A DNA stretch of 64,000 nucleotides from Ruminococcaceae bacterium UBA7217. Lineage in GTDB: Bacteria > Bacillota > Clostridia > Oscillospirales > Acutalibacteraceae. The notes beneath the pieces are model-generated. The model did no database searches. It was given only the letters and a program-made list of their open reading frames with translations, and was not told where the DNA came from. Positions 16,159 to 58,245 of this stretch are shown piece after piece; position 1 is the stretch's first letter; every line of letters starts with the position of its first letter. The stretch lies in contig DKTZ01000035.1 in the NCBI GenBank assembly GCA_002490425.1, positions 12,024 through 76,023 on the forward strand, given 5' to 3'. The position numbers were made by a program, and so were the translations under genes.

Positions 16159-16250
16159 ACTCACCCTCACCTCCAAAATAAATAAATTAACCGATTTTAA
16201 TTATAATATTATACTACTGTATACCTATAAAATCAAGAGTTACGGACAGC

Positions 16251-16284
16251 AAAAAAGCGGACAGGCGTGGAAGCCTGTCCCTAC
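16251..16284 (-). terminator. GTAGG-hairpin element acting as the intrinsic terminator of the GT2 gene
   Basis: The minus strand reads GTAGGGACAGGC-TTCCAC-GCCTGTCC followed by GCTTTTTTG. It belongs to the same family as the copies at 26306 and 58009. Confidence 0.65.
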
Positions 16285-16301
16285 AAAATTCTAATTAATT
16301 G

Positions 16302-17228
16302 TCACCGTTTATCTGATTTCCCGACACGCTTTGACACTATATAACGCGGTCTGCCCTTTACTTCTTCATAAATTCTCGCAATGTAATAGCCAATAATGCC
16401 CAGCGCCATCATCAGAGAACCGCCTATCAAAAGTAAAAGAAGAATTACGGTTGTAAAGCCCTCAGCCGAAGAGCCGCAAAGATAACGCACAAGCGTTTGC
16501 ACCGCCAAAATTGCCATAAAGCAAAGAAGAACTGCACCGATTACCGTTACAGCCTGCAAAGGGGCGGTTGTAAACGATGTTATGTTTGAAACAGCATATT
16601 TTGTAAGCTTTGTTAAATTCCATTTTGACTTTCCGTTTGCTCTTTTTTCTACCTTAAACTCAATCTGCGTTGAATTAAAGCCTGACCAAAACGAAAGCGC
16701 CCTGAAAAAGGTGTTTCTTTCTGGCAAAGAGATGAGCGTGTCGATAACCTTTCTGTCAATAAGCTTAAAATCCGACGTTGACTGCATATCCACCCCTACA
16801 AAACGGCTGATAATTTTATAAAAGCTCTTTGCGAACATATTATACATTGCAGAGCCGCCGCCACGGTCGCTCTTAATGCCCTCAACAACCTCAAAGCCCT
16901 GCTCCCAAAGTCTGTACATTTCAACAATTTTTGAAGGCGGAAACTGCAAATCACAGTCAAATATTACTGCGCAGTCGCCGCTCGCTTCCTCAAGTCCCGC
17001 AAAAATTGCAGACTCCTTGCCGAAATTTCTGCTGAACGAAATGCCCTTTACGTTTTCATCAAACTGTGCCGACTTGCAGATTTCAAGATAGGTTTTATCC
17101 CTCGAACCGTCGTCAACGAATATGATTTCATAGGAAATTTCTTCATTTTCAAAAAGCTTCGACAGCGTTTTTGCGGCAAGAGCAATATTTTGCTCCTCAT
17201 TGTATGCGGGAATAATTACAGAAAGCAT
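16302..17228 (-). CDS. family 2 glycosyltransferase, polyprenyl-phosphate sugar transferase type (GtrB/CsbB-like) with two C-terminal TM helices
   Basis: SVIIPAYNEE, FVDDGS-D and DCDLQ motifs, plus a C-terminal membrane anchor. Confidence 0.8.
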   Translation of the reverse strand: MLSVIIPAYNEEQNIALAAKTLSKLFENEEISYEIIFVDDGSRDKTYLEICKSAQFDENVKGISFSRNFGKESAIFAGLEEASGDCAVIFDCDLQFPPSKIVEMYRLWEQGFEVVEGIKSDRGGGSAMYNMFAKSFYKIISRFVGVDMQSTSDFKLIDRKVIDTLISLPERNTFFRALSFWSGFNSTQIEFKVEKRANGKSKWNLTKLTKYAVSNITSFTTAPLQAVTVIGAVLLCFMAILAVQTLVRYLCGSSAEGFTTVILLLLLIGGSLMMALGIIGYYIARIYEEVKGRPRYIVSKRVGKSDKR

Positions 17229-26217: not shown

Positions 26218-26250
26218 AATATCAGCAAAAGTTATATCGGCAAACTAAAA

Positions 26251-26275
26251 AGAGGGCGAGAAGCCCTCTTTTTTA
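26251..26275 (+). terminator. intrinsic terminator
   Basis: AGAGGGC-GAGAA-GCCCTCT followed by TTTTTT. Confidence 0.7.
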
Positions 26276-26280
26276 GTTTA

Positions 26281-26514
26281 TGTGATGAATTTACAGCAGT
26301 AACCTGTAGGTGCAGGTTTCCAAGCCTGCCCGATGACAGATCGATTAGTATTTCGGTTTATTTATAATCGTATAGGTCGTCTACATCTACAATCTTGTAG
26401 GGTACGCCGACTCGGCGTACCGTGGGGAATGGCTTGCAAATTCAAGATTATACTCGTGATGATGTGGCAGCGTCCCCTATTACTACAACACATCATCCAA
26501 TGCCAAAGTATTCA
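26281..26514. repeat. cluster of GC-rich hairpin (REP-like) elements
   Basis: GTAGGTGCAGGTTTCCAAGCCTGCCC (26306-26331), GTAG+GGTACGCCGACTCGGCGTACC (26397-26421), CTACAA-TC-TTGTAG (about 26385-26398), and GATGATGTG...CACATCATC (26458-26497). The track ORF at 26333-26608 here is not credible as coding. Confidence 0.6.
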
Positions 26515-47517: not shown

Positions 47518-47559
47518 CGGTCTATGATAAACTATTTTGCAATAGAAAAATAATCAAAA

Positions 47560-47720
47560 GTTTTCGCCCGCCTTTTTCAAAAGGCGGTAGGGCGGTGGGG
47601 CAAAGCCCCGCCTTGCAGTCCGCAGACTGCAAAATTTCTTTACTCACAAAAGCGCAGGAGGGGAGAAAGAACAGTCCGGTGGACTGTTCTTTCGGGGAAC
47701 CCTCGCCGGGGGTTCCCCAT
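47560..47720. repeat. chain of five perfect GC-rich hairpins (REP-like cluster)
   Basis: The hairpins are at 47568-47587 (CCGCC/GGCGG), 47597-47609 (GGGG/CCCC, preceded by GTAG at 47587), 47613-47632 (TTGCAGTC/GACTGCAA), 47665-47693 (13-bp stem GAAAGAACAGTCC/GGACTGTTCTTTC) and 47694-47718 (GGGGAACC/GGTTCCCC). Confidence 0.65.
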
Positions 47721-55200: not shown

Positions 55201-55450
55201 TTTACTCTCTAATTGAAGTACGGAACTCTCGGCTCCCCTGAAAGGGGAGCTGTCGAGCGTTAGCGAGACTGAGGGGTTAATTTCTTTAGCAAAAAACTTT
55301 ATAACCCCTCTGTCACTTCGTGACATCTCCATTACTCGCCTGCCGGCTCAGACAGCGTTAATTCGGCATCCGCCGGATGCCCACGCCCTTTCAGGTGCGA
55401 CAAGGATTTTGTAGGGACAACCGCGGTCGGCTGTCCCTACCGCGCTCATC
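55201..55450. repeat. cluster of GC-rich hairpins and REP-like elements
   Basis: Hairpins are GCTCCCC-TGAAA-GGGGAGC (55232-55250), GGGGTTA...TAACCCC (55273-55308), TGTCAC-TTC-GTGACA (55311-55325), GGCATCC-GCC-GGATGCC (55365-55381) and GTAGGGACA-N12-TGTCCCTAC (55411-55440). Confidence 0.65.
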
Positions 55451-57082: not shown

Positions 57083-57994
57083 ATGAAAGAAAAAACCTTT
57101 AATCTTAAAATATACGGTGCGATTGCTTTCTTTGCGGTTGCCGCCGCCCTTGCACTTATGGTTGTATTTACCTTCAAGAACAAATACACGGCATTCCACC
57201 CCGAAGAGGTAGCAAAAAACTATGCCGACACAATAGTTCAGACAGGTGACGGCTACAACGCTTATAAAAATGCGCTTGTAAGCAAAAGCTCAAAATACGG
57301 TGACTTTATCCGCAAGTACTATATGTACCCTGTAATTTACCGTGAAACAAATTACAAGCCTGGTGACAAAACAGACGAACTCAAAGGCTTTAACGACGAG
57401 TCATATATGAGCGACAAATCCAAAAACGATGACGGCTCACTTCAGGGTAAGGTTATCGAAAAGATGTACCCCTATTACGTTCAGCTCGCAGAAAACGGCT
57501 GGGACAACTACGATGAAATTTTCAAAAAATATTTTGAAGAGCTTGTACGTGTACGCAAAGAGATTTTCGGCGACGACTATATGACAGACGAGATTATGTT
57601 CACAGCCCTTGAAAGCAATGTTAAGACATACGGCGAAACGCTGACAGGTACTGAGGACGAGTTTGACAAAAACACCAAAAAGCAAATTTCATTCAAGAGC
57701 ATAGGCGAATACGAAAAGGTGTACGGCGAGGATTACAAATTCACATCTTCTGTTGCAGGCGAAAAAGCGATTGACCTTAATACATACAAAGCAAATATTA
57801 ACGCAGATAAATTCGCTGAATACGGCGTTTCGGCAGACGATATTTCAGATGTTAAGTGCTATACCGTTGAAGTAAAAACGGCTGACGGAAAAACAGTTAC
57901 AAGCGCAGATGTAACCGTTGTAAAAATCGGCAGCTCGTGGTATGTTGACTCTGCAGCAACTAACACTTCTCCCCTTTATTCGTTCTATAAATAA
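57083..57994 (+). CDS. hypothetical membrane-anchored extracytoplasmic protein
   Basis: One N-terminal TM helix (IYGAIAFFAVAAALALMVVFTF) and an acidic Tyr/Lys-rich ectodomain. It starts 13 nt after the MFS gene. I recognise no family. Confidence 0.5.
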   Translation: MKEKTFNLKIYGAIAFFAVAAALALMVVFTFKNKYTAFHPEEVAKNYADTIVQTGDGYNAYKNALVSKSSKYGDFIRKYYMYPVIYRETNYKPGDKTDELKGFNDESYMSDKSKNDDGSLQGKVIEKMYPYYVQLAENGWDNYDEIFKKYFEELVRVRKEIFGDDYMTDEIMFTALESNVKTYGETLTGTEDEFDKNTKKQISFKSIGEYEKVYGEDYKFTSSVAGEKAIDLNTYKANINADKFAEYGVSADDISDVKCYTVEVKTADGKTVTSADVTVVKIGSSWYVDSAATNTSPLYSFYK

Positions 57995-58008
57995 TTCTAA
58001 ATTACTTC

Positions 58009-58042
58009 GTAGGGTCAGGTTTCCATGCCTGACCCTTTTTTG
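58009..58042 (+). terminator. GTAGG-hairpin element acting as an intrinsic terminator
   Basis: GTAGGGTCAGGT-TTCCAT-GCCTGACCC followed by TTTTTTG. Confidence 0.7.
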
Positions 58043-58245
58043 TTCTCGCCATTTAGTAGGGAATGTAATTTTCCGTTTCATACCCCTCATAAGTCGGCTG
58101 CGCTGACAGCTTCCCCCCTCGGGGGAAGCCTTTTTATGCCTTCCCCTCAAGGGGAAGGGGGACCGCATTAGCGGTGGATGAGGTGTAACGAATTTAATTC
58201 AACAGAAAACAGTCGTCGCCCTACAAATTAAATTTACATATTTAC
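58043..58245. repeat. cluster of GC-rich hairpins and REP-like elements
   Basis: GCTTCCCCC-CTC-GGGGGAAGC (58109-58129), CCTTCCCC-TCAA-GGGGAAGG (58139-58158), ACCGC-ATTA-GCGGT (58162-58175), and CCCTACAA (58220-58227), which is TTGTAGGG on the minus strand. Confidence 0.65.

Follow-up and report, generated by a model that had tools for sequence, protein, structure and literature searches.

We analyzed a 64,000-nucleotide stretch of DNA from Ruminococcaceae bacterium UBA7217 (the window), which corresponds to positions 12024-76023 of contig C56 in the source assembly (G000; 1,935,781 bp in 61 contigs, 40.7% GC, 96.5% complete). The subject is a set of short hairpins with the tetranucleotide GTAG at the 5' foot, which we regard as probable repetitive extragenic palindromes (REPs). 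A REP is a short DNA palindrome that forms a hairpin when single-stranded, and a dedicated enzyme, the REP-associated tyrosine transposase (RAYT, or TnpA-REP), recognizes the hairpin shape together with the unpaired 5' GTAG. A first-pass annotation of the window quoted three homologous copies, and all of them were found as described: copy 1 at 16284-16259 on the minus strand, and copies 2 and 3 at 26306-26331 and 58009-58035 on the plus strand. Copy 1 begins 18 nt past the stop codon of a glycosyltransferase-like gene (16302-17228), copy 3 begins 15 nt past the stop codon of the gene 57083-57994, and copy 2 lies between convergent genes, where a separate terminator of the ordinary kind (26250-26276) precedes it.

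GTAG-footed hairpins in the window

A covariance model (R1), built from an alignment of the family, matched five loci in the window at 27-42 bits, as well as one degenerate remnant. The GTAG-footed hairpins of the window are as follows:

16250..16287 (R1 match 16256-16287), minus strand: REP copy 1, GTAG GGACAGGCT-TCCA-CGCCTGTCC then GCTTTTTTG; 38.1 bits, E = 8e-9; folding energy (dG) -16.4, z -4.7
26303..26334, plus strand: REP copy 2, GTAGGT GCAGGTT-TCCA-AGCCTGCCC, no T-tract; 29.4 bits
26394..26424, plus strand: REP of another stem sub-type, GTAG GGTACGCCG-ACT-CGGCGTACC; 41.9 bits, the best score in the window
47587..47612, plus strand: GTAG-footed hairpin of uncertain membership, GTAGGGCGGTGGGGC-AAA-GCCCCGCC; no R1 match, similar to a second REP type of this genome
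55408..55443, both strands read as REP: 'double-foot' REP, GTAGGGACAACCG-CGGT-CGGCTGTCCCTAC; 27.0 and 26.5 bits
58006..58042 (R1 match 58006-58037), plus strand: REP copy 3, GTAG GGTCAGGTT-TCCA-TGCCTGACC followed by CTTTTTTG; 31.5 bits; dG -19, z -6
58053..58077, plus strand: degenerate REP remnant, GTAGGGAA-tgtaatt-TTCCGTT; 16.5 bits, E = 0.018

The pattern GTAGGNNCAGGN8CCTG matched the 64-kb window three times, solely at the quoted copies, with 0.02 matches expected from dinucleotide-preserving shuffles. Predicted RNA folding energies of the window copies ranged from -14.8 to -19 kcal/mol (z scores of -3 to -6 relative to shuffles). The compensatory change previously noted among the three copies (A:T, G:C, and T:A at one stem position) is real. 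The TTCCA loop, which had been described as fixed, is frequent in the whole genome but variable, since TTCTAT, TCTCTG, and TCTCCG were also found. Copy 2 departs from the pattern of the others in its GTAGGT start, which gives a T.C mismatch at the second stem pair. When the element is redrawn in the register of the whole family, it has a stem of nine positions (the last two pairs being Y.G and T.Y) closed by a TCCA tetraloop. In this register the three-copy sub-type reads GGACAGGYT-TCCA-YGCCTGTCC, and its 26-nt layout is the same as that of GGGACGATG-CCCA-CATCGTCCC.

The first-pass annotation also listed three further GTAG-prefixed hairpins. Two of them, at 26397-26421 and 55411-55440, are clear members that the covariance model matches; the former follows copy 2 by 65 nt in direct orientation. 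The third, at 47587-47612, was not matched by the model and appears to be a variant of the second type of REP. Consecutive perfect hairpins surround it (47540-47720).

A genome-wide family of hairpins

The strict pattern of the three copies had 17 matches in the whole genome. When we searched generally for hairpins preceded by GTAG, this sub-type proved to be one of many within a GTAG-tagged superfamily. Its members share a 26-nt plan, consisting of GTAG, a 9-bp GC-rich stem starting with GG, a loop of 3-4 nt (ACT, ACCT, ACC, TCCA, or CCCA), and, in most cases, a GT that follows the stem. The TCCA-loop sub-type is connected to the rest of the family by intermediates such as GGACAGGTG-CCCA-CACCTGTCC.

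To quantify the excess, we used a strict definition (the tetramer plus a hairpin with arms of nine nucleotides, a loop of 3-4 nt, and at least 8 pairs). GTAG preceded such hairpins at 116 sites in the genome, compared with a median of 25 sites over the other 255 tetramers, and the only tetramers with higher counts were AAAA (239) and TTTT (139). Family members account for 109 of the 116 sites. These 109 copies of the abundant type comprise 50 distinct stems and 84 distinct full sequences, and no sequence variant exceeds five copies; the abundant type thus looks like an old, diversified population. The covariance model recovered 126 sites in the 1.94 Mb genome at E <= 0.01. Outside genes there are also about 21 copies of a second REP type, GTAGGGCGGGGGCTTGCTCCCGCC, 13-14 of them identical. 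Altogether the family amounts to 109-126 copies of the common architecture and about 21 copies of the second type, rather than merely the few seen in the window.

An alignment of 108 copies (A1) was used to examine conservation. GTAG is invariant and directly adjoins the 9-bp stem, and the following GG is nearly invariant. Both sides change in eight of the nine stem pairs, with 30 further pair types, and the covariation score is 0.67, compared with 0.19 for shuffled alignments and at most 0.12 for slid controls. The characters by which REPs are known, namely a GT[AG]G tetranucleotide 0-2 nt ahead of a fully paired stem of at least 7 bp with a short loop, the high copy number dispersed outside genes, and the compensatory changes in the stem, are therefore all present.

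A third palindrome with a GTAG foot and a longer stem (about 14 bp), GTAGGGC GGGGTTGCGGGTGT-(loop)-ACACCCGCAACCC, was found several times in the same genome (C40:9515-9556, C32:36809, C53:49022, and C60:32779), and similar pieces occur at C21:40001-40178 and C34:3845-4042. This longer palindrome may be another REP family.

Placement, orientation and pairing of the copies

The positions of the copies were compared with a crude map of the longest open reading frames (ORFs), in which 1,720 ORFs cover 88.7% of the genome. Ninety-four of the 109 copies lie outside these ORFs, and the 15 copies 'inside' fall mostly in short ORFs that are probably spurious. Relative to the neighboring genes, 41 copies are tandem and co-oriented, 13 are tandem and anti-oriented, 38 lie in convergent regions, and five in divergent regions. 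The median distance between a copy and the upstream stop codon is 48 nt, and in 25 of the 38 convergent regions the copy is closer to the co-oriented gene. No bias of REP orientation relative to the replication strand, as judged by local GC skew, was observed (60 to 49).

About two thirds of the copies are singletons. Among neighbors within 150 nt, 19 pairs are arranged tail-to-tail (GTAG...> <...CTAC), four are direct, and three are head-to-head. In 16 of the 19 tail-to-tail pairs the spacer is 23-80 nt long, an arrangement like that of REP doublets known as REPINs and of bacterial interspersed mosaic elements (BIMEs). The census of gene orientation and inverted pairs that the first-pass annotation had proposed thus revealed a sense placement at the 3' ends of genes and a preference for tail-to-tail pairing.

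RAYT-like transposase genes and their embedded REPs

The genome has a full-length gene for a RAYT-like HUH/tyrosine transposase, a paralogue that is truncated, and a fragment, and homologues are present in related genomes, so the Y1 transposase expected by the first-pass annotation does exist. The NCBIfam model NF047646 ('REP-associated tyrosine transposase') had two matches, both on contig C36 in the inositol-catabolism (iol) cluster (the loci of both paralogues are L003/L004 and L001):

C36:31716-32249: full-length RAYT-like ORF, 177 aa
C36:39016-39474: 5'-truncated RAYT-like paralogue, 84% identical to the full-length protein

The two paralogues are about 7 kb apart within the iol cluster. 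A search of the whole genome with the Pfam model Y1_Tnp returned one weak match, to a RAYT-like gene (21.9 bits, compared with a cut-off of 23 bits), and no IS200-type tnpA.

The motifs NHIH, FQ, and YIDEN(P/V) are present in the RAYT-like proteins. In an alignment of 12 homologues from this genome and its relatives, H95 and H97 (the HUH motif), Q142, and Y162 and N166 (the Y-I-x-x-N-P motif) are invariant. The best match of a profile of these 12 sequences in the PDB is 4ER8, the E. coli TnpA-REP (E = 3.8e-9), and the alignment brings the HUH, WQ, and YIxxNP motifs into register; a single RAYT sequence gave no match in the PDB, and the profile was needed. The closest relatives in GTDB genomes come from metagenome-assembled genomes (MAGs) of uncultured Clostridia and Eubacteriales and from a Faecousia sp. 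MAG, and two of the record names refer to animal-gut samples (deer colon and cecum).

The RAYT genes themselves contain REPs. In this genome and 14 related loci, REPs lie in frame within the RAYT ORF at two fixed positions, tail-to-tail; both sites are present in 11 of the 14 related loci, and the G000 gene has a degenerate copy at the first site. The first is on the coding strand near codons 44-52, where GTAGGGCGGGGGCTTGCTCCCGCC reads V-G-R-G-L-A-P-A, and the second is on the opposite strand just after the HUH motif, where it reads A-G-A-S-P-R-P-T. In both C36 paralogues an in-frame GTAGGGCGGGGGCTTGCTCCCGCC lies on the non-coding strand, just past the HUH motif. Other RAYT lineages have other stems at the same two sites, for example GGAACGGTG-CCCA and GGTGCGATG-CCCT in L011, and GGGGCGACG-ACCT and GGGCTGACG-ACCT in L015. 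The embedded REPs of L011 and L015 have the same architecture and belong to the same stem families as the type that is abundant in our genome.

Interior segments of the RAYT genes

The RAYT fragment of this genome is located on another contig, between a recR-like gene and smpB:

C30:2502-2729, minus strand: REP, fragment of RAYT interior, and REP; tblastn E = 3.7e-6 to L015

The unit consists of GTAGGGGACGACG-ACT-CGGCGTCCC, 89 nt, and then GGACAGCCGAGGTGTCTGTCCCTAC, with exact GTAG...CTAC bounds. The translation of the 89 nt contains ...ILKDNGKIVEKYINSIHAAF... and corresponds by homology to the RAYT interior without the HUH part, and no N- or C-terminal RAYT sequence was found on either side. 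The converse structure occurs in related genomes, where interior-deleted RAYT pseudogenes have lost the segment between the embedded REPs (L012, L024, L025, L028, L030, and L031). In L024 (G019:C29:6300-7000, 393-420) one double-foot REP, GTAGGGAACGGT-CAAG-ACCGTTCCCTAC, connects the N- and C-terminal parts with a frame shift, which is the expected remainder of a deletion between two embedded inverted REPs. Several diverged RAYT lineages and many pseudogenes occur within one genus.

The interior-deleted genes and the C30 unit together suggest that the REP-bounded interior is a separable unit. We propose tentatively, and with odds that we place clearly below even, that the RAYT gene holds an in-frame inverted REP pair, in effect a REPIN, around its own HUH-coding segment, and that this interior behaves as a unit that can be separated from the gene. 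The interior deletions may be caused by the enzyme or by replication slippage between the hairpin arms. A comparison of 15 tail-to-tail spacers with three RAYT interiors, by local alignment with shuffled controls, gave nothing convincing (best p = 0.015-0.045, uncorrected for 45 tests), and the C30 element alone is demonstrably derived from a RAYT interior. If the enzyme is responsible, the transposase would mobilize part of the sequence that encodes it and thereby be inactivated. Should the proposal hold, it would account for the large number of dead RAYT genes in these genomes and for their orphan REP populations.

Co-occurrence of REPs and RAYT genes across genomes

The number of R1 hits follows the presence of a RAYT gene. 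Among 16 relatives outside the genus, the two genomes with a RAYT had 79 and 71 hits, compared with no hits in 12 of the 14 genomes without a RAYT and eight and three hits in the remaining two. We extended the comparison to a sample of the order with 149 genomes from 97 genera, in which a RAYT was scored as present at E <= 1e-10 and the R1 counts rest on at most 48 scored candidates in each genome. At least 10 R1 hits were found in 19 of the 33 RAYT-positive genomes and in two of the 116 RAYT-negative genomes, and any R1 hit in 27 of 33 and 13 of 116, respectively; related genomes are not independent in these counts, although the positives come from many families. Three near-complete genomes of the genus have neither a RAYT nor REP hits.

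Terminator-like copies and turnover of their sites

Copies 1 and 3 satisfy the consensus of intrinsic terminators, in agreement with the earlier remark that two of the three copies carry a T-tract where terminators are needed. The broader idea that the family has been domesticated as terminators would hold for a minority, about 20% with a T-tract, and does not extend to the remaining ~80%, which are without a T-run. Fourteen of the 109 copies have at least five T within 8 nt, and 24 copies pass a looser criterion similar to that of prediction tools. These 24 terminator-like REPs represent about 4% of the 594 terminator-like hairpins that lie between genes in the genome, and about ten of them belong to the TTCCA-loop sub-type.

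The position orthologous to copy 1 holds an ordinary hairpin, such as AAAGCGGAGCTTTGGCTCCG, in the sister genomes G020, G021, and G006, and is followed there by the T-tract and promoter that also follow copy 1, so that in our genome the REP stem occupies the place of the ordinary terminator hairpin of the sister species. For copy 3, each of seven orthologues of the upstream gene in the genus has its own unrelated terminator at this place. The sister-species terminators at both sites are unrelated in sequence and have no GTAG. This comparison supports a role of the REP as the terminator stem at the copy 1 and copy 3 sites, as predicted from sequence. A promoter-like site (TTGATT-17-TATAAT; 16194-16236, minus strand) directly follows copy 1 and its T-tract and is kept in the sister species. 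Since this site for the next gene is conserved, the short spacer would hold a terminator and a promoter back to back.

The occupation of these sites by REPs differs between species. None of the seven genus orthologues of the gene upstream of copy 3 (58-71% identity) has a downstream REP, and one of ten orthologues of the gene upstream of copy 1 (71-88% identity) is accompanied by REPs, in the form of a doublet. For comparison within the species, we defined conspecific assemblies as those encoding an identical flanking protein, as found by exact-protein look-up. Wherever a conspecific contig covers one of the three window copies, the copy is there and unaltered, save for a two-base variant of the copy 3 loop in two assemblies; copy 3 is present in ten of ten conspecific assemblies. 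A degenerate-pattern scan of metagenome contigs from the Joint Genome Institute (JGI) for the gene end beside copy 3 gave no matches.

The intergenic region after copy 3 has two unrelated haplotypes within the species (58043-58245 of the window, compared with 2455-2770 of L065/L067). The shorter haplotype, that of the window, holds the degenerate remnant at 58053-58077. The longer one (+106 nt) has three extra REP matches and a shorter GTAG-footed remnant. One of its REP matches is of the minor type with a compensatory G:C-to-T:A change, and at the position of the window's remnant it has a full REP, GTAGGGTATGCCG-ACCT-CGGCATACC.

Interpretation and alternative explanations

We assign a probability of roughly 0.85 to the conclusion that the hairpins are REP elements of a GTAG-tagged superfamily that goes with a REP-associated HUH/Y1 transposase. 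By analogy with the E. coli TnpA-REP, the RAYT would cleave and re-join single-stranded DNA at the hairpins and thereby spread them; the co-occurrence of REPs with RAYTs and the turnover of REP sites are indirect evidence for this. The REPs would be transcribed together with the genes as part of mRNA 3' ends, and those directly adjoining a T-tract (~20%), copies 1 and 3 included, would presumably act as intrinsic terminators. Several observations weigh against this conclusion. The A1 copies were chosen for pairing, which makes the figure of 95% paired positions circular and leaves the diversity of pair types alone as evidence. The window copies are invariant among strains and so give no sign of recent movement. 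Both C36 RAYT copies score under the NF047646 cut-off (45-54 compared with 80 bits), and the full-length protein has MTNH for MPNH and YIDENV for YIDENP at near-invariant positions, which makes its activity uncertain. No REPs flank either of these genes, contrary to the layout for which the first-pass annotation had suggested a search; this flanking (REPtron) arrangement was seen only in the relatives L008, L010, and L011, one of whose flanking REPs has the TTCCAC loop of the three-copy sub-type. Finally, it is the minor homogeneous type of REP that the resident RAYT carries in its gene, instead of the abundant type, and the RAYT lineage with embedded REPs similar to the abundant type is represented in this genome only by the interior fragment on C30.

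These last points bear on whether the abundant hairpins still move. The 13-14 identical copies of the second type, together with the same sequence in the resident RAYT genes, indicate that this type may be currently or recently active, whereas the abundant population, whose matching RAYT lineage has shrunk to a fragment, may be either a relic or a population cross-mobilized by the resident enzyme. We see somewhat less than an even chance that it is a relic, in which case the abundant hairpins were spread by a RAYT lineage since lost, are now immobile, and are kept as useful or harmless 3'-end stem-loops (terminators or barriers to 3' exonucleases), and any action of the resident RAYT is confined to the GGCGGGGG-CTTG type. 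The sequence diversity of the abundant type fits such a history, as does the strain invariance of the window copies, and the orientation of the copies follows transcription (41 versus 13) and not GC skew. Some relatives likewise keep REPs in the absence of an intact RAYT: G016 has 54 hits with only an interior-deleted RAYT, and G018 (21 hits) and G017 (14 hits) lack an intact gene, both of these assemblies being just 75-78% complete. Against a relic, a RAYT gene could be missing from our own assembly, which is 96.5% complete and in 61 contigs. The E. coli TnpA-REP, in addition, recognizes GTAG and the hairpin shape, which would make cross-mobilization by the resident RAYT possible, and the REP cluster beside copy 3 is completely different between strains.

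That the hairpins are not REPs at all appears far less probable. Independent selection of GC-rich stems and U-tracts at gene ends would explain why copies lie at the 3' ends of genes and why two of the three window copies fit the terminator consensus. It would leave unexplained the invariant GTAG and nearly invariant GG, neither of which is needed for termination, the identical elements inside RAYT coding sequences, and the rarity of the T-tract in the family (14-24 of about 110 copies). In addition, the orthologous terminators of sister species are unrelated and lack GTAG, and GTAG-footed hairpins are not equally common in RAYT-free relatives, the copy number instead tracking the transposase. 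We therefore regard convergent terminator composition, which the first-pass annotation had named as a possible source of the similarity, as scarcely credible. Very unlikely, too, is an origin of the hairpins as ends or remnants of another mobile element (IS200/IS605, a miniature inverted-repeat transposable element (MITE), or an attC-like site) or as sites of a host protein unrelated to RAYTs. IS200/IS605 elements also use short hairpins, and some of our copies are clustered with other hairpins, but the only Y1_Tnp gene in the genome is RAYT-like. The elements are about 26 nt long, solitary or in REPIN-like pairs, and without a common internal sequence, and the GTAG foot and the co-occurrence with RAYTs point to REPs. 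Clustered regularly interspaced short palindromic repeats (CRISPR), attC sites, and IS200/IS605 ends were considered and rejected, as there were no arrays, no integrase context, and no IS200-type tnpA.

Relation to known REP/RAYT systems

To our knowledge, REP/RAYT systems have been studied almost entirely in Proteobacteria. REPs of E. coli and Pseudomonas have proposed roles in transcription termination and in the protection of mRNA 3' ends. The hairpins described here resemble the E. coli REP/BIME-TnpA-REP (RayT/YafM, 4ER8) and Pseudomonas REPIN-RAYT systems in the HUH/Y1 nuclease, the GTAG-footed hairpin, and the inverted pairs. They differ in that the similarity to the E. coli TnpA-REP is distant and detected with a profile only, and in that several diverged RAYT lineages and pseudogenes occur per genus, instead of one vertically inherited copy. 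Copies 1 and 3 share with Rho-independent terminators a GC-rich hairpin and a T-run just after a stop codon; unlike such terminators, they have a stem that is repeated at dispersed sites and has a conserved GTAG foot, and most of the family has no T-run.

A survey of GTAG-tagged REPs (Di Nocera, De Gregorio & Rocco 2013, PMC3733652) listed them in Proteobacteria, Cyanobacteria, Chloroflexi, as well as the PVC superphylum, and its text has no mention of Firmicutes or of words beginning with Clostridi-. The family described here agrees with that superfamily (PMC3733652) in the unpaired 5' GTAG at a GC-rich stem-loop of 20-40 nt, the more than 100 dispersed extragenic copies, the several co-resident stem families, the inverted pairs, and the location near stop codons of unidirectional or convergent genes. 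It is distinguished from the surveyed REPs by its short elements (26 nt, with a 9-bp stem and a tetra- or triloop) in a 1.94 Mb genome of 40.7% GC.

On the side of the enzyme, Quentin et al. (2018, PMC6006769) reported TnpA-Y1 subclass 2.4, equated with Group 4 of Bertels' RAYT classification, in 'Cyanobacteria, Bacteroidetes and various phyla', with the motifs NH[IFV]H, WQ, and YIxNNP and a median length of 194 aa, and gave in-frame REPs within tnpA-REP and 'double-foot' REPs as its hallmark. Our RAYTs are similar in the motifs (NH[IFV]H, W/F-Q, and YIxxNP), in length (~160-195 aa), in the in-gene and double-foot (GTAG...CTAC) REPs, and in their patchy distribution. By motifs and by this hallmark they are predicted to be members of subclass 2.4. 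A difference from the published description (PMC6006769) is the upstream in-gene site, which makes an inverted pair that brackets the HUH segment. Clostridia appear in the main text of PMC6006769 only for subclass 1.1, with none in the two supplementary files examined, and Bertels et al. (2017) mention them only for RAYT Group 1; a full-text literature search found no paper naming both RAYTs and Firmicutes. The system is thus of a kind that is well known in other phyla and sparsely documented in Clostridia.

The general picture of REPs is unchanged by these findings. A dense REP population in small (~2 Mb), AT-rich genomes of gut Clostridia does extend the known range of such elements, and it matters for the annotation of these mostly uncultured hosts, in which REPs mark gene ends, break assemblies, give rise to in-frame insertions, and are liable to be misread as terminators or regulatory RNAs. 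The comparison of orthologous sites provides a concrete case of a mobile hairpin located where the sister species have a terminator stem, and the RAYT lineages, each with its own in-gene REP type, offer a natural system for the co-evolution of an enzyme and its target.

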